In this document: positions 2,500 to 30,473 of the stretch, in pieces
Numbering within the stretch: position 1 is the first letter of the stretch
How the letters are laid out: each line of letters begins with the position of its first letter
From: an uncultured Candidatus Saccharibacteria bacterium
GTDB lineage: Bacteria > Patescibacteriota > Minisyncoccia > UBA6257 > GWB1-50-10
Assembly: GCA_964365955.1 (NCBI GenBank)
Contig: CAYISA010000003.1
Coordinates: 677-64,676, forward strand
Reading direction: 5' to 3'
DNA length: 64,000 nt
The notes under the pieces: model-generated
Told to the model about the DNA's origin: nothing
Databases searched by the model: none
Seen by the model: the letters and a program-made list of their open reading frames with translations, nothing else
Program-made: the position numbers and the translations under genes

Positions 2500-5400
2500 T
2501 CAGTATTCGATTTCGATACTCCACGCGGGATACCATGGGCCGCCGTTCAGATAATGGTATTCCTCAAACCGCAGGTAGAGGGGGAACCATCCAAAGATTC
2601 CCGTTTTTAGAGCGATTCCCCCGCGATGGGTAAATTGAAACGGATCATCGATCCAATTCGTAGTGCCGCCGTATAAAAATGGCGCCACACTGAAAGAGAA
2701 GAACCAAAACGGATTCCGATGCTCCCAGAATTCATAGTCCACAATAAAAGTGCGCAGGAATGGAAATCGCGCTTCGATAGTGTAGAGCAGAAACGTGTTG
2801 CCAAAATTCTTTTCCCACTCAAAATTCAGAAATCCCGGAGTGCGATACAGTTCCGGCAGAAAGAACGCATAGGGTTGATGTCCCCGCGAGATGCCGTATC
2901 CTGCTCGCATTGCGAGATATGCCCGCGATTGCCACGGCCGCCAATAATACCGCGCGTCGGCCGAGAGTGTCATATTAATGACACGGTTCCCGAATTTGCC
3001 AATTACGCCATTTGTGGTTACCAAAGACACGGTATAACGATGCCCGTGCCGTGTGGAGCGAAGATCGTCCAGGAAAGTTCCGTCCGAGACAAACACCGCA
3101 TTCAGTTGTACGAAAGGAAGTTCCAGAAATGCGGGTTGGGGAATCAATTGCTTCGTATTATTCAACGCTCCTCCAAGATTCTGTATCCCAGGCGCAACAC
3201 TATCAGGCGGTTGATGCAGGATAAATCCCGCACTCAATGCAACCGAGATTTTATTCTCAAGATCAAAGGGCCATGTAAAACGCCGCTCCACCTCCATAAC
3301 CCCCCGTTTCAGAACATCCACGCGTCCTGTTGCCGGAGAACGATAAAATTGCGGAGTCGCGCTCATCGTAATGCCTGTTTGTGTCATGAGCCGTTTTGAA
3401 AAATCAAACCAATGAACTCCCGTATTCGCGAACACCTGCTGTGTCCCAAGATAAAGGTGACCGGCGAACCCGTGTTCACCCGTTGCGTCCGTCGAAACAA
3501 TCTCACCCATTCCCGTGTACGTGTCTTCAGAAGAAAGCATGGTGCGGTAACGGCGACTCCGATCCGGCGCTTCCACGGGCAACGTGAAATTTCCACGCCG
3601 CACAAATGTCTGCATCTCCTCCATTCGAACCTCTGTTCCTTGAAGAGGGGAGGTATCGAATCGAATTTCCACAAACCTTCCGTTCGTGGCACTTTTACTC
3701 CGTGTTTCATGGAGCAGAAACGTTCCGTTTTTTCGAAAACCAATGAGTTGATCAACAAACGGGTACTGAATCGATTCCGTTTTTCCTTTTATACTTGTCC
3801 CATCGCCATAACGATACCGATACGCTCGGGAATCTCCGATCTTCCACAGATAAAGAAGCGGCACGCCATTTTCCTGAAGTATGCGCATCACCAGACGTGA
3901 AGAATCCGCAACCCACTGGTCGACAAAACCCGAAACAGAATCCAAACAAACGCGTTCGGATGTGCCGCGCATATTGGTCACCAGATAGTGCATGTCACGA
4001 AAACCGCCGCTCTCAATGTAGAAAAGAGAGCCGTTTACAAATCCCGGCGCGTCCTTCGCAAACGAATCATGCGTGAGTTTTTGCAATCCTTCGGTTGCCA
4101 GATTGAACGTGTAGATATTTTGCTCTCCGGTTGTATCGAACCCGACAAAGATCAAAGTGTCCCGCGACAAAAAACGGAGACCCTTTATCCACGGAAGCTC
4201 GGGAATGGAATATTCTCTTTCTTCATTGGACTTGCCGTTTTCCATCCGGTAAAGACGGATTGCGTTCCCGTCAATTTTTGATAGAACAATCGCAACGCGA
4301 TCTCCAAAAATGGCAGGCGGATTGCCGAGCCGATACCAAAGTGTTTTATCATCAAATTGGTGCGCGATCTCAATCTCGTCCCATGTCGTCTTGCTATATC
4401 CCGTATCAAAGCCGAAAGTGGCGACATCCACACCCCACTTTTTATTGGTGGACTCATAGAACACCATGCGCTCGGTTCGGGGGTCAAATCCGACGTTTCC
4501 GTCGGGCTGAACCAAAGAGATCCCAGCGGTTGTTTTTTCCGTCAGGATGCGTTTCGACACGCTGTCGGCAACCTGGAAGAAGGTTTGTCCGTAATATTTT
4601 TTCCGCATGGATACGTTCCATGCCGCTTCCGATACCGCGAGCGGCTCCTGAAACGTCGCTTCCCATACGCTGTCCTTGAACGGTTGATCGCGGGCCACAA
4701 GGCTGCGAAGACGGGCAAACACCGTAGAACCGAAACGCTCTGCCATAAAATGATGGAAATTGTATCCGAAAGAATAGTTCCCGAAATCTCTGGTGAGCGC
4801 GAGTAGTTCCAGGGACGGTTCCTCTTCATTCATGACAAAGATCACATTGCGCATTTCGGTTCGGGCACGGCGATAATCGTTTTGTTCCTGTAAAGAATCC
4901 AGATAAACGTCGCTTGATCCGTATTCCGCGAATCCTTCCGTGCTCCAAAGCGGCAATGTGGGCGACTCATCATAACGATAACCCATTTGCCGAAAACGTT
5001 CCGCTTGCTTTTTCACAAAGAATCGCTCAAACGCGTGCACAATCTCATGCGCCAGTGTCTGCCGAAATTCATGATCATTGCCGCCGTAGGGGAATGCAAT
5101 GCGCTCCGTAAACAACTCTGTAAATCCCAGGATACCGGGCGGGAGTATTATATGCACCAGCATCTGTTCGTTAAAACGTTGCGGGTTTGCGTAGAGCACT
5201 ATCACGAATGCCGAATCGGGTCTCCACGATTTTAACTCGTACGTCACAATCGGTTTCCCCAGTGAATCCCGCTTTATATCTTCACAACCAAGTGAATCTT
5301 TACGAACTACGAGCATGGAATCACGAAACAGCTTTTCGGAGTAGAGAGGGACAATAATTGCAAGTTCCGCACTCACTTCGCGCGCGATAGGTTCCATTCC

Positions 5401-12300: not shown

Positions 12301-12311
12301 TTTCTTTTACT

Positions 12312-12509
12312 AAATCTCTAAAATCCCTTTTAGTGAATATCGCCGAGGAAGCGTAAAAATAACCGAGCGCGGAGGAAGGACGTAGGAATTCGCCGCTGTC
12401 TGAATCCCGACTCCGCTAGTCGGCGGAGAGGTTGAGTTCGGAGAATTACGTTATGTCCAACAAGAAGTGAGAGTTATTTTAGCGAGCGAGGATATGAACG
12501 AAAGGGGAT
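12312..12509. repeat. Non-coding element flanked by 14-bp perfect inverted repeats (atctctaaaatccc ... gggattttagagat)
   Basis: IR arms at 12312-12325 and 12496-12509. The ~170-nt interior has a nested hairpin (ccgactccgc-tagt-cggcggag) and degenerate cgagcgNgagga repeats, and no ORF. Confidence 0.45.
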
Positions 12510-12510
12510 T

Positions 12511-13275
12511 TTAGAGATACCCAACTTTCTTCAACCATTCAACATTTTCCCATTCCCATAATTTCTTTGCGCCCAAAAATGCCTCAAAGTCCTCTTTCCA
12601 GTAGGGGAATTCCTGGAGTTCAATACGCCCCTCGGTCTGCCCCCATTCATGCGTACAAGCCTGCATAAACGGGTTCCCGCGCTGGGTTTTGACCTGATGC
12701 TTGCCGCCCTTGCTTCGCAAGGTAGCTCCGCAATGGACACAGCGACGATCCTGGTCGATACGCAGTATCCAACGCGTCTCGAGACCCTTTACGGAATCCT
12801 TCATCGCCGCCAAGTACGCGGACGTTTGCAGGTTATAATCCCGATAAATTTCTTTGGAGGTTTTGATGTCCAAAATTCCCAATTTTCCGCCAATCAGCGC
12901 CACCGCATCCAGTGTGCCCGCGTACCGATGTTCATAATTCACCAAGCGGTGCTCCACGTATGCGGGATCAACCTGGATTTTGTTTGCAAGCATAAATTCC
13001 AAAAATGCTTTTACGGACGGCTGGATAAGCGAAGGGATTTCCGGTTTTTTTCCGACCAAGATTGCCTCCACGGCTTCATGGATCATCGTCCCTTCGGTGG
13101 CAGACTGATTTTTCACGCGTTCGCCCTCGGCAAAACTCCCCATGCGTCCATAAAAATGATAGAGAGCCGGTTTTGCCTTTATGTCCACGATCTTCGTGAC
13201 GCGCGGATACCACGTTCCGTTTATGTTATAGCCGCTTTTTGTTTTAAAATCTTCAGGAGTTTTGTATAAATCCAT
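12511..13275 (-). CDS. PD-(D/E)XK family nuclease with a C-terminal CxxC...C cluster
   Basis: GTLDAVALI...ILDIKTSKEIY gives a D...D-x-K core. A CVHCGAT...C...H metal-binding-like cluster lies near the C-terminus. Confidence 0.5.
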   Translation of the reverse strand: MDLYKTPEDFKTKSGYNINGTWYPRVTKIVDIKAKPALYHFYGRMGSFAEGERVKNQSATEGTMIHEAVEAILVGKKPEIPSLIQPSVKAFLEFMLANKIQVDPAYVEHRLVNYEHRYAGTLDAVALIGGKLGILDIKTSKEIYRDYNLQTSAYLAAMKDSVKGLETRWILRIDQDRRCVHCGATLRSKGGKHQVKTQRGNPFMQACTHEWGQTEGRIELQEFPYWKEDFEAFLGAKKLWEWENVEWLKKVGYL

Positions 13276-23161: not shown

Positions 23162-23878
23162 TTACGTAACGGGAGACTTTTTCGCAATCGTGATAGCGCC
23201 GAACTGCGCGTCCTGTACCGCGTGCACAAACTGGTCCTTGATCAAATGGAGAACAGCAAGGAAGAGCACTACGATCTCCTCGCGCCCCTTTCCTTTCTGA
23301 AGCGCATTGAATTGTGTGGGTAGTTCCGTAAGCCGCGCGAGCACTTCCTCGATTTTCTGCTTCAAGTGCAAAATTTCCCGACGCACGGTTGCCGTGGGGC
23401 GGAATACTTTTTCCAGCTCCCCTACCATGCGTGCGAGCGTATCGCGTAAAAATTCCGGCCCCATATTCGCCGGAGGATAAAAAATAGGTTCCGTTGTCAT
23501 TAAAAATTCCCGCGAAAACATCTGTGATGTTTCATCCCATGTGGAACGAATCATCTGATGCGTCGCTTTGAGTTCGTGATATAACTTGAGCCGTATCTCC
23601 AAACTTTTAATATCGGTTTCTTCTTCTGCGGTCAGTTGGAGCGACGGCAGGAGTGCTTTGGATTTGATAAGAATGAGCCGCGATGCCACCACCAAAAAAT
23701 CCGCCATGGATTGCTGTGCAAACGCCTCACCTTCAAGCGTTTTGATGTAGTTCAAAAAATCCGCAGTCACGTCCGCCAAACTTAACTGCGTAATTTCAAG
23801 CTTCTTTTCCTCAATTAATTCAAGGAGTTTTTCGAGCGGACCCTTAAACTGTTCGTTTTTGACCTCGTAGGGAGCCAT
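23162..23878 (-). CDS. scpA: Segregation and condensation protein A
   Basis: ScpA (kleisin) family. 238 aa. Sits upstream of scpB. Confidence 0.85.
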   Translation of the reverse strand: MAPYEVKNEQFKGPLEKLLELIEEKKLEITQLSLADVTADFLNYIKTLEGEAFAQQSMADFLVVASRLILIKSKALLPSLQLTAEEETDIKSLEIRLKLYHELKATHQMIRSTWDETSQMFSREFLMTTEPIFYPPANMGPEFLRDTLARMVGELEKVFRPTATVRREILHLKQKIEEVLARLTELPTQFNALQKGKGREEIVVLFLAVLHLIKDQFVHAVQDAQFGAITIAKKSPVT

Positions 23879-23905
23879 TTCTTTAATACTATACTAACCT
23901 GCGTA

Positions 23906-23950
23906 GAAACCCAAAAAATAAGCTCCCATACCAAGCAATGGTACGGGAGC
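23906..23950 (-). terminator. Rho-independent terminator (minus strand)
   Basis: Minus-sense gctcccgtacc-attgcttg-ggtatgggagc hairpin followed by TTATTTTTT. Confidence 0.5.
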
Positions 23951-24305
23951 GGGGTCCTTGATGCGGCGATAAATATGCCTATTGGCACGGGGTTTGGTTA
24001 CTGGCTGAAGAATTTCAGCAAGAATGCAAACCGAAATCGAGATGCGCCGTGATCAAGGAAAAAGGTGGGGTGGTTGGGGTCACGGGAGCGATATTATTCC
24101 ATCCGGTTAAGATTGGCGGAAATGTACACGCCGGTGTACTTATCGATTGCTCCTGCTTAGCACTATGCTTTGCGCCATGGGGTCACATCGGTACCGGTAT
24201 CCGACTATGGACGCCAACCACCCACATTCAATGCACTAGTGTTCAGTATACTTCCCTCTCATTCATTTGTCAAATCACCGTCATTGACGGACTGGTCCGC
24301 CTACC
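23951..24305 (-). ncRNA. Candidate structured non-coding RNA (family not identified)
   Basis: No credible ORF. GC-rich, with a long-range 12-bp pairing (gtgggtggttgg / ccaaccaccccac) and internal hairpins (gtacac-cggc-gtgtac). It ends at the terminator above. Confidence 0.3.
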
Positions 24306-25301
24306 TTACCCGTGGCGGATAACCAACACATCCCCGTCCTGCACGATATAATCCTTCCCCTCCAAACGGAGCCAGCCCTTTTGCTTTGCCTTATTCCATC
24401 CGCCGGCTTCCAATAGTTTTTGCCAGTTCACAACTTCCGCGCGGATAAAATTATGCTCAAAATCCGTATGAATGGTCCCCGCCGCCTGCGGTGCTTTGTC
24501 GCCGTGCATAATCGTCCACGCTCGCGTTTCGTCTTCTCCTGTCGTAAAAAAACTGATGAGATCCAGAATTTCGTATGCTTTTTTGATGAGCGAATCGAGC
24601 ACAAGCGTGTTTGCCAGATTCACGATCACGTAATCCGATTTCTGTCCCTTAATATAGATTTTAATCTCATCCGTTACATCACTTTCTTCGCCATTTAATA
24701 AAAAAATCTGCTTTTTAGCGGTTAATAACTGGAGTTCTTTTACGATCGGCTCATGCACAAAATCGGATATAAAATTCCCCCTCTCGATCTCTGATTTTAC
24801 CCCTTTCAAAATTTCAACGTCTTTGAGCGCCCTTTTATCCCCCGTTCTGCCTTGCGCTTCCGCCTTACCCAAACGGCGTTCCACCGTGTCCAGATCTTTA
24901 AGCCCAAGCTCTGCCTTGATGATCTCCATATCGCGGATGGGGTTCGTTGTACCTTCTACGTGCGTTATATCGCTTCCCCCAAAACAGCGCACTACTTGAA
25001 CAATCGCTTTACAGTCGCGGATGGTCGCCAAAAACTGATTGCCGAGCCCCTCGCCTTTGTTAGCCCCCTTAACCAGCCCTGCAATATCGTAAAATTCCAC
25101 AACCGCCGGAACCACTTTTTTAGACTTTTCGAGCTCCGCCAGTTTGGAAACGCGTTCGTCGGGTACGGTTACTACGCCTACATTCGGATCGATTGTTGCA
25201 AACGGATAATTGGCGATATGCACTTCTAGTTTTGTAAGCAGTTTAAACAGCGTGGATTTCCCCACATTCGGTAGTCCTACAATTCCTATTGACAATTTCA
25301 T
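24306..25301 (-). CDS. ychF: Ribosome-binding ATPase YchF
   Basis: GLPNVGKSTLF G1 motif, with C-terminal TGS domain. Probable start MKLSIGIVG. Confidence 0.9.
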   Translation of the reverse strand: MKLSIGIVGLPNVGKSTLFKLLTKLEVHIANYPFATIDPNVGVVTVPDERVSKLAELEKSKKVVPAVVEFYDIAGLVKGANKGEGLGNQFLATIRDCKAIVQVVRCFGGSDITHVEGTTNPIRDMEIIKAELGLKDLDTVERRLGKAEAQGRTGDKRALKDVEILKGVKSEIERGNFISDFVHEPIVKELQLLTAKKQIFLLNGEESDVTDEIKIYIKGQKSDYVIVNLANTLVLDSLIKKAYEILDLISFFTTGEDETRAWTIMHGDKAPQAAGTIHTDFEHNFIRAEVVNWQKLLEAGGWNKAKQKGWLRLEGKDYIVQDGDVLVIRHG

Positions 25302-26270: not shown

Positions 26271-26815
26271 TCGATATAAAACCTATATTTCTTTTTCGCC
26301 CATACTCGACCGGCATACTCTACTCCAATGCGCGCTACGCGCTTGATCTGTGATTTTTGAATGCGCTCCTTTCTATCTTCAATCCATAAACCACTTTGGC
26401 GGTTTGCGAGTTTTGTATTGAGTGATTTTCCGATCTTGAAAAACTTTGTGACGCGCGCGGTACCGGTTATTCGCCGATTGGCAGATTCCACACCCCGAAT
26501 AAGAACCGCTGCCGGGTGGCCAACTTTTCCGGTGACGATATTCAGCATCCAGTGCATGCCGTATGTAAAATAGACGTACCAGTACCCCGCCGGACCAAAC
26601 ATCACCGCGTTGCGATGTGTCTTCCCCCGCGCGGCGTGCGATGCTTTGTCATGCGGACCGTCGTAGGCCTCGACATCGGTGATCATCGCCGCAATAACTC
26701 TTCGACCGTATTTTCGGCATAGATACATTCCCAAAAGCGACTGTGCCATTCGTACTGTCGGTTCTTCGAAAAACCGCGACAAAAGGATGCTCTGTTTTCC
26801 TGTTGACTTCCGCAC
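26264..26815 (-). CDS. mpg: DNA-3-methyladenine glycosylase (Mpg/AAG family)
   Basis: Conserved AAG-family core (TDVEAYDGPHDKASHA..GYWYVYFTYGMHWMLN). Confidence 0.85.
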   Translation of the reverse strand: MRKSTGKQSILLSRFFEEPTVRMAQSLLGMYLCRKYGRRVIAAMITDVEAYDGPHDKASHAARGKTHRNAVMFGPAGYWYVYFTYGMHWMLNIVTGKVGHPAAVLIRGVESANRRITGTARVTKFFKIGKSLNTKLANRQSGLWIEDRKERIQKSQIKRVARIGVEYAGRVWAKKKYRFYIEK

Positions 26816-26870
26816 ACTTCAATTTTAAACTACAAATAGGTATTTTAGAAACTTCCCAGAAAGGAGTTGG

Positions 26871-27083
26871 ATGGAACGACGCGAATGGACCCCGAAAACC
26901 GCGCTCATCATTCTTTTGATTTGCGCGTGTATTACGTCGATTGCTACTGCATTATTTCAATGGTTTGATCTTGATGCTGGCATTCTATGGATATTCTATG
27001 CTGTGGTAGCGCTCGCTATTTTCCGGAATATTAAATTTCCGCCTAGTGGATCTTCCGGTCACGGCCCTCCGCCTGCTATTTAA
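26871..27083 (+). CDS. Small membrane protein
   Basis: Strong SD (aaaggag). Two predicted TM segments. It is followed by a perfect terminator. Confidence 0.5.
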   Translation: MERREWTPKTALIILLICACITSIATALFQWFDLDAGILWIFYAVVALAIFRNIKFPPSGSSGHGPPPAI

Positions 27084-30402: not shown

Positions 30403-30473
30403 TGGGGGGTGGTGTAAAGGTAGCACGTCAGGCTTTGAACCTGAAAATTGGGGTTCGACTCCCTGCCCCCCAG
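30403..30473 (+). tRNA. tRNA-Gln (anticodon UUG)
   Basis: Cloverleaf: acceptor t/gggggg..cccccc/a, U8, anticodon stem tcagg/cctga with loop cTTTGaa, T-arm tgggg-TTCGACT-ccctg. CCA is not encoded. Confidence 0.8.

Follow-up and report, generated by a model that had tools for sequence, protein, structure and literature searches.

A candidate structured non-coding RNA gene downstream of ychF in a narrow clade of Patescibacteria

The ychF-scpA gap and its predicted transcription signals

The window, that is, the whole stretch of 64,000 nucleotides (nt) analyzed here, belongs to contig CAYISA010000003.1 of an uncultured Candidatus Saccharibacteria bacterium (assembly GCA_964365955.1), and this study concerns the gap between its ychF and scpA genes, in which a gene for a folded non-coding RNA (ncRNA) probably resides. 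On the minus strand, ychF (25340/25301-24306), a gap of 427 nt, scpA (23878-23162), scpB, a gene for a D-Ala-D-Ala carboxypeptidase-like protein (dac), and mraY are arranged in this order. ScpA of the window showed 100% identity to an NCBI protein from a metagenome-assembled genome (MAG) of a 'Patescibacteria group bacterium', and the loci nearest to the window are those of Patescibacteria/Minisyncoccia MAGs. A previous reading made from the letters alone (the sequence-only reading) had described positions 23906-24305 as GC-rich and free of open reading frames (ORFs). The latter was borne out, as the sole ORF of at least 60 amino acids (aa) there is a 100-aa GTG ORF on the plus strand (24049-24351), which extends antisense into ychF and has no match in Pfam. 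The former was not: the gap has a GC content of 0.495-0.505, compared with 0.37-0.55 for the genes on either side.

Closer relatives were obtained by searching for proteins similar to ScpA and YchF and looking up the contigs; the related loci are numbered here with the prefix L. A homologous unit was found 3' of ychF in the same orientation in four lineages besides that of the window, namely L019 (ScpA 94% identical to that of the window), L025/L026 (YchF 81%), L027 (YchF 77%), and L022 (YchF 75%). The units of these relatives comprise a TTGACA-type promoter, a folded domain, a U-run, and a terminator. The comparisons below deal with the five independent lineages represented by six sequences (the window, L019, L022, L025, L026, and L027).

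In the window, the unit opens with a near-consensus promoter, TTGACA and TATACT spaced by 17 nt, which lies 33 nt past the ychF stop codon and was unmentioned in the sequence-only reading. A promoter at the equivalent position was called in L019 (12/12), L027 (11/12), and L025 (10/12), while that of L022 is weaker and was recognized by eye only. At the other end, the minus-strand terminator that had been placed ~355 nt after the ychF stop is indeed present, its stem being followed by TTATTTTTT ~356 nt past the stop (24306), albeit terminator-like sites are as frequent as in shuffled sequences (1 found versus 1.3 expected in 1.4 kb). Equivalent terminators were called in L019, L022, and L025; the scan called none in L027, in which a stem with one mismatch was seen by eye only. 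The promoter and terminator bound a unit of ~325 nt in the ORF-free interval of the minus strand, laid out as the promoter, a helix-closed domain (24225-24065), the U-run, a Y-shaped domain (24059-23955), and the terminator (23950-23912; Table 1). A promoter and an intrinsic terminator of its own within an ORF-free interval are marks of an independent bacterial small RNA (sRNA) gene.

Table 1. Features of the putative RNA unit and of the region preceding scpA, in the order of minus-strand reading
Feature	Position	Strand	Basis or remark
Sigma-70-type promoter, TTGACA-17 nt-TATACT, 11/12	24273..24245	-	Promoter scan
Short unpaired 5' leader, UAGUGCAUUGAAU	24226..24240	-	Relatives carry UAGAAACUUG there
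P1 5' strand, GUGGGUGGUUGG, then C, then GUC	24210..24225	-	Inverted-repeat search, alignments
Hairpin H1, stem GUCGG(A)/(A)CCGAU, G.U closing pair, loop UACCGGU	24187..24205	-	Alignments, RNAalifold
H1 loop CCGGU, 5' half of the proposed pseudoknot	24193..24197	-	Pair counts
Diverged H2 region, keeps GCUAAGCAGG, 13-nt insertion, GAACCUUU block lost	24148..24186	-	Comparison with relatives
Conserved UUCCGC motif	24116..24121	-	Four of five lineages; L025/L026 without it
ACCGG of the CYGGA motif, 3' half of the proposed pseudoknot	24103..24107	-	Pair counts, MAFFT alignment
P1 3' strand, GAC, then C, then CCAACCACC(C)CAC	24065..24081	-	Inverted-repeat search, alignments
U-run CUUUUUCC directly after P1	24057..24064	-	Sequence inspection; present in all five lineages
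Domain 2, Y-shaped module, 8+5-bp closing helix, two hairpins	23955..24059	-	Folding versus shuffles
Intrinsic terminator, 12-bp stem (23950-23922), 5-nt loop, UUAUUUUUU tail	23912..23950	-	Terminator scan
-10-like hexamer TATAGT	23888..23893	-	From sequence; 9 nt upstream of scpA ATG (23878), weak -35

Structure-preserving evolution of the first domain

The long-range helix pointed out by the sequence-only reading, termed P1 here, is present. Its arms (24068-24081 and 24210-24223) are 14 nt long, 93% complementary, and 128 nt apart, and GUGGGUGGUUGG and CCAACCACC(C)CAC form 10 contiguous pairs, two more past a 1-nt bulge, and three inner ones after a C.C mismatch. Such a helix alone does not exceed chance, as the window contains 16 exact long-range inverted repeats of at least 10 bp versus 13.3 +/- 3.7 in Markov shuffles. 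The helix and the terminator by themselves are thus at chance level, and the case for an RNA gene rests on context and comparison.

P1 comprises 10-15 bp in all five lineages, in which the sequence varies while the complementarity is kept. Relative to L019, P1 of the window shows paired substitutions and a symmetric indel of 2 bp, the pattern that selection on pairing would be expected to leave. The identity between these two loci is ~0.70 at the third codon positions of scpA and ychF and 0.25-0.50 per 40-column window in the RNA body, across which both P1 and hairpin H1 persist. H1 comprises 5-6 bp in all five lineages; the G.U pair that closes it is conserved, its loop ends in CCRRU, and four of its six pairs have changed on both sides across the relatives. 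The G.U and U.G pairs of H1, conserved in five of the six sequences, correspond to A.C mismatches on the opposite strand. Together with the promoter and the terminator, these pairs indicate that the minus strand is the functional one.

The loop of H1 and the CYGGA motif, the latter of which is common to all five lineages, likely form a pseudoknot, judging from the five pairs available to them in each lineage: CCGGU/ACCGG (window), CCGAU/GUCGG (L022), CCAGU/ACUGG (L027), CCGGU/GCUGG (L019), and CCGGG/UCCGG (L025). Two independent double changes from G-C to A-U were found at neighboring positions in L022 and L027. In an unguided MAFFT alignment, both motifs occupied common columns for four lineages, with L025/L026 one column off. 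Between the two motifs, the relatives carry the H2 block GAACCUUUnnGCUnAnCAG, which has diverged in the window to a version ending in GCUAAGCAGG with a 13-nt insertion. According to the minimum free energy fold, RNAalifold, and covariation, P1 encloses a junction from which H1, H2, and other hairpins branch, and not a 6S-type rod with a central bubble.

In the hand-made structural alignment, 93.5% of the cells are paired and 15 of the 30 pairs have changed on both sides; none of 500 shuffles reached these values, and sliding the register left 28-50% paired. RNAalifold recovered P1 and H1 independently from this alignment, and additionally suggested a 2-bp covarying closure of the H2 block. Compensatory substitutions among homologues are a further mark of sRNA genes, found here in an alignment of five lineages that was fitted by hand. 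A covariance model for which all six sequences were used scored the relatives at 50-118 bits and the window copy at 116.9 bits, which are matches by construction. The same model found no further copy in the window and 34 related loci (the best other score was 13.6 bits), and thus the element is single-copy within the window. Among the checks suggested by the sequence-only reading were the conservation of the pairing in related genomes and a scan with covariance models: P1 and H1 proved to be kept in the relatives by compensatory changes, and no family of Rfam was matched (see below for the details).

Distribution, insertions, and neighboring genes

Genome and metagenome scans with ScpA returned only loci with at most 58% ScpA identity, and neither blastn nor nhmmer detected nucleotide similarity to the gap at ~57% ScpA identity. 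Besides the five lineages, L020 (YchF 73%) keeps the promoter and the terminator around a degenerate body, and L024 (YchF 91%) keeps the promoter, followed by unrelated sequence that ends with AAGGAG, a Shine-Dalgarno-like sequence, at the contig edge. In L097, the promoter found at that position belongs to a gene for a 91-aa secreted protein, and only ~10 nt separate ychF and scpA in L092-L096. This distribution suggests that the element was acquired recently by one sub-clade and can be lost. In the window, L019, L020, and L022, scpA follows the RNA and is co-oriented with it, and the contigs of L025/L026 end before the next gene. In L027, the RNA stays with ychF and faces a convergent gene for a DNA glycosylase, scpA being on the other side of ychF.

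In the interval between ychF and the RNA promoter, L019 (271-564), L022 (2155-2475), and L024 (1977-2297) contain a gene for a membrane protein of ~100-106 aa with CxxC pairs; these genes are on the strand opposite to ychF, share 29-30% mutual identity, and are absent from the window. Directly before the RNA promoter of L025 lies a palindromic segment of ~60 nt (CCCCGTTAGAG...CTCTAACGGGG; 1680-1745) bordered by direct repeats of GGGGTTGAC, the second of which supplies the -35 TTGACA. In L027, the promoter and P1 are set apart by ~105 nt of additional leader containing two hairpins (3540-3645), which no other lineage possesses.

Domain 2 of the window folds at -38.8 kcal/mol versus -20.4 kcal/mol in shuffles (z = -5.5), and amounts to a 104-nt insertion relative to L019. 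L019, L025, and L027 have no counterpart of it, and L022 matches it in part: an extra domain occupies the corresponding site there, the flanks are alike (CCUUG...AAGGAMCCC), and the two domains share the hairpin AACCC-GUGYC-loop-GRCAY, one pair of which is compensatory. Near-identical loci also differ by insertions of ~182-186 nt right after ychF, as seen in L001/L014 (~3750-3960) versus L012 (~2925-2950), and a difference of the same type separates L006 (3190-3375) from L004 (~2105-2125). The 3' end of the insertion is the reverse complement of the 5' flank, which creates closing helices of 17-19 bp followed by a U-run, and domain 2 of the window shares this property. The mechanism may be inverted duplication, deletion by microhomology, or a mobile hairpin element.

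A second, unrelated, conserved structured element of ~210 nt was found in an ORF-free gap on the plus strand of the window (12310-12520), with a 14-bp closing helix (ATCTCTAAAATCCC / GGGATTTTAGAGAT). It is homologous to the elements located just 3' of ychF in L004, L006, and, inverted, L017, contains the invariant blocks CTGT..GAATCCCGA and GAGGTTGAGTT, and found no match in Rfam. A GCGAACC...UUUCCGC resemblance in the element of L004/L006 was considered and dropped, as the orthologue in L017 does not have it and the element belongs to a different family.

The leader motif upstream of P1 is not specific to the RNA, since it occurs as well behind a different promoter of the window (26803-26854) and behind that of L097. 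The leader 'UAGAAACUU' was thus dropped as a family-specific seed, because the motif also follows promoters that drive protein genes. More generally, TAGAAACTT (or TAAGAACTTT) occurs 5-15 nt after TTGAC-type promoters and before small protein genes (window 26803-26854, plus strand; L097 3620-3700). Examples of the genes behind it are the window ORF 26871-27083 and, at the ychF-downstream position of L097, that of the 91-aa secreted protein. The motif resembles a common leader or operator more than a component of the RNA family.

As for the flanking genes, the ychF ORF delimited mechanically encodes 344 aa from 25340. Most of the listed homologues have 331 aa, and their alignment begins at the internal ATG (25301), which is thus probably the true start. 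A -10-like hexamer (TATAGT or TAAAAT) lies 4-9 nt 5' of the scpA ATG in the window, L019, L020, L021, and L022; in L022, TTCATA-16-TAAAAT, ending 7 nt before the ATG, was called as a promoter by the scan. L021 keeps this hexamer upstream of scpA, yet has no RNA element. The hexamer and its retention in L021 suggest a separate, nearly leaderless scpA mRNA, of which TATAGT in the window is a possible promoter. In these loci (window 23876-23893; L020, L021, and L022), scpA appears nearly leaderless, and in several lineages it has no Shine-Dalgarno sequence.

Interpretation, alternatives, and significance

Based on the context and comparison above, we consider it moderately probable that the gap contains a stand-alone, minus-strand gene for a folded ncRNA of ~325 nt that represents a previously undescribed family. 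The family is best read as young and clade-restricted, confined to the closest relatives, and always downstream of and co-oriented with ychF. RNA polymerase would start ~7 nt after the TATACT box, near 24238 (+/- 3 nt), and transcribe a domain of 160 nt closed by P1, in which the H1 loop would pair with the downstream CYGGA motif as a pseudoknot. The U-run and the Y-shaped second domain would follow, and transcription would stop at the strong terminator (23950-23912). The product would be ~325 nt, or ~180 nt if termination takes place at the U-run after P1, which may act as a first termination site or as a linker.

Several observations count against this interpretation. The independent lineages available number only five, and their structural alignment was fitted by hand. 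In the unguided alignment, the statistics of the pseudoknot were not significant (86.7% paired, with 88 of 500 shuffles as good), and a 5-nt complement to the loop within ~70 nt is fairly likely by chance (estimated at ~0.5), so that the pseudoknot rests on positional homology and the two double changes. The window copy has no GAACCUUU block, which the other lineages retain. The folding z-scores are modest and mostly not strand-specific (-2.46 for the minus strand and -4.09 for the plus strand), and thermodynamic stability, tried as a discriminator, did not separate the strands. The unit is absent in the close relatives L021, L023, L028, and L092-L096 and degenerate in L020, which implies that the element is dispensable. 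Furthermore, many hairpin-forming insertions of 100-190 nt occur at this spot in these genomes, and a long closing helix may thus arise there by mutation, not selection.

The main rival explanation regards the RNA as a cis-acting leader, riboswitch-like or an attenuator, of scpA-scpB-dac-mraY, in which an operon promoter precedes a P1-closed sensor and a conditional terminator. In four lineages (the window, L019, L020, and L022), the promoter, the folded domain, and the terminator are in fact followed by the co-oriented scpA, and the P1-closed, pseudoknotted domain, the U-rich linker, and the downstream operon resemble those of terminating riboswitch leaders. The promoter scan found none above the threshold between the terminator and scpA in the window. 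In the distant relatives in which ychF and scpA are ~10 nt apart, the two appear to form one operon, so that an inserted terminator would need a bypass. Likewise, the segment before the 3' strand of P1 (GCUCCCGU) is identical to the 5' strand of the terminator, and alternative pairings are possible. On the other hand, the RNA of L027 is followed by a convergent gene with scpA elsewhere, scpA seemingly has its own -10 hexamer, called in L022 and kept in the RNA-less L021, and the 104-nt extra domain stands between the proposed sensor and the terminator in the window. No known riboswitch class matched at E<=10. Antiterminator pairings can be drawn in single sequences, such as that with the GCUCCCGU repeat in the window, but inspection of the sequences found none consistent across the lineages, and this model was set aside. 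Given the arrangement in L027, the -10 hexamer of scpA, and the lack of a conserved antiterminator, we favor the independent RNA gene and regard the leader as unlikely. The RNA has also been read as a long structured 3' untranslated region (UTR) of ychF, to which an sRNA processed from it can be added, the fold serving to stabilize or terminate the ychF mRNA. The constant position downstream of and co-oriented with ychF, with which the RNA moved together in L027, agrees with this idea, and the terminator scan found no convincing ychF terminator before the RNA promoter, which leaves room for transcripts that run on from ychF. The distant L001 possesses a different helix-closed element 4 nt after the ychF stop with no promoter. 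What this idea leaves unexplained is the near-consensus internal promoter conserved in four of the five lineages and the opposite-strand gene between ychF and the RNA in L019 and L022, and we consider it quite improbable. Enterobacterial MicL and DapZ are sRNAs embedded in 3' UTRs with internal promoters, which depend on Hfq and base-pair through a seed. The RNA in the window is similar to them in lying directly after a co-oriented protein gene, having its own promoter, and serving as the terminator region of the upstream gene, but differs from them in its compact two-domain fold with no evident seed and in the gene that separates it from ychF in L019 and L022.

Evolutionary debris, that is, a hairpin insertion or a decaying remnant at the hot spot downstream of ychF that is incidentally transcribed from a promoter which formerly served, or in other loci still serves, genes for small accessory proteins, appears improbable to us, albeit somewhat less so than the 3' UTR. 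The promoter at the same position drives the secreted-protein gene in L097 and precedes an unrelated transcript in L024, hairpin insertions of 100-190 nt come and go at this spot (L001/L014 versus L012; L006 versus L004), and the element is lost or degenerate in near relatives. Nevertheless, P1, H1, and the loop-motif pairing show compensatory substitutions in the five lineages, which indicates selection on RNA pairing, and the element is single-copy at an orthologous position with a divergence that tracks the host genes. Neither tandem repeats nor a second copy of either domain were found within the 64-kb window, and the phage and plasmid collections gave no match in distant blastn mode. The element does not resemble a miniature inverted-repeat transposable element, being single-copy in the window and all the loci, with a P1 sequence that differs between lineages and no flanking direct repeat seen. 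A scan of viral contigs for the H2 motif yielded 63 matches, none of which has the context of the H1 hairpin or the pseudoknot, and these were dismissed as chance. A sense-strand gene for a small protein was considered because the H2 block reads M-[GR]-T-F-[RK]-L-[TSA]-[RKE] in four relatives (L019, L022, L025, and L027), in which sense ORFs of 54-75 aa cover it with conservative R/K and synonymous Leu changes. We rejected this reading as very improbable: the conservation among the relatives is limited to these eight residues, which coincide with the RNA motif, the frame stops after 12 codons in the window, and neither a Shine-Dalgarno sequence nor a Pfam match was found. The A/G changes fit exchanges from G.U to A-U in an RNA stem equally well, and the covariation in P1 and H1 is outside the ORF. 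The least credible of all is a highly divergent housekeeping RNA (6S, RNase P, signal recognition particle [SRP], or transfer-messenger RNA [tmRNA]). The 6S-like RNA proposed by the sequence-only reading has some superficial appeal in the length, the closing stem formed by the 5' and 3' ends, and the poor sequence conservation, which 6S RNA (RF00013), itself small and of an abundant type, shares, and Rfam models can miss variants of the candidate phyla radiation (CPR). Nonetheless, 6S was not matched at the gathering threshold, at E<=10 in the region, or at E<=5/E<=1 in the relatives, and the fold is multi-branched with a proposed loop-motif pseudoknot instead of a rod. In Rfam 15, the whole window contained only one tRNA at the gathering thresholds; at E<=10, positions 23700-24500 gave only a resemblance of the terminator hairpin to the PyrG leader (20.6 bits versus a gathering score of 65), and permissive E-values (E<=5 and E<=1) returned nothing relevant in 14 related loci. 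The signatures of RNase P, SRP, and tmRNA, which the sequence-only reading had sought and not found, were absent in these analyses as well. For RNase P, there was no Rfam match and no CR-I/P4 (GAGGAAAGUCC-like), and the GGGAACCUUU block of the relatives misfits CR-I and is not kept in the window. For SRP, there was no Rfam match or domain IV motif, and an AGCAG-like block varies among the relatives (ACCAG, ACCAA). ARAGORN found no tmRNA but only tRNA-Gln at 30403. The absence of the element from close relatives would be unexpected for such an RNA.

Returning to the independent RNA gene, the other proposal of the sequence-only reading, that is, a structured ncRNA of another kind on the minus strand, gained support from the conserved promoter and terminator, the structure-preserving substitutions, and the strand-specific G.U pairs. 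Orphan structured ncRNA motifs of bacteria have been found by comparative genomics, an example of which is the raiA motif RNA. The RNA in the window resembles motifs of this type in the independent promoter and intrinsic terminator, the multi-helix fold of 150-300 nt with a proposed pseudoknot, the conserved unpaired blocks, and the recurrent neighborhood of a gene for a ribosome-associated factor, as well as in a function not deducible from the sequence. Unlike them, it is restricted to five lineages of one sub-clade of Patescibacteria, evolves fast, is dispensable, and has no match in Rfam.

The closed multi-helix fold, the proposed pseudoknot, the conserved unpaired blocks, and the U-tail after P1 favor a binding RNA. 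As the fold is compact and tertiary-looking, the unpaired blocks are conserved, and no conserved antisense target was found, the RNA may act in trans by binding a protein or a ligand rather than as a base-pairing sRNA. The sole functional lead is the constant linkage to ychF. YchF is a ribosome-associated ATPase with a predicted nucleic-acid-binding cleft, and from the gene linkage we name it as a speculative partner. A wider proposal appears doubtful to us, in which the RNA would be the founding member of a new class of complex-folded RNAs in a CPR sub-clade, either a sensing RNA (the partner of which may be YchF) or a new riboswitch class gating scpAB-dac-mraY, and the spot downstream of ychF would be a slot for 'promoter plus swappable cargo'. 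If true, this slot would serve these reduced genomes as a testing ground for novel structured RNAs and small secreted proteins.

With only five lineages and no functional clue, the RNA is a solid candidate rather than a surprise. To our knowledge, almost no ncRNAs of CPR/Patescibacteria have been characterized experimentally, and full-text searching of the literature on their ncRNAs found no description of one. The small CPR genomes leave little room for non-functional DNA, and two helices and the loop-motif pairing have been kept here while ~30% of the third codon positions differ, which makes the unit credible as a new RNA gene and gives metatranscriptomics and structure probing a concrete target. 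This family seems to appear, decay, and be replaced within a narrow clade, and a second, unrelated element uses the same slot elsewhere. Altogether, this turnover and the shared slot may show how reduced genomes come by new RNAs.

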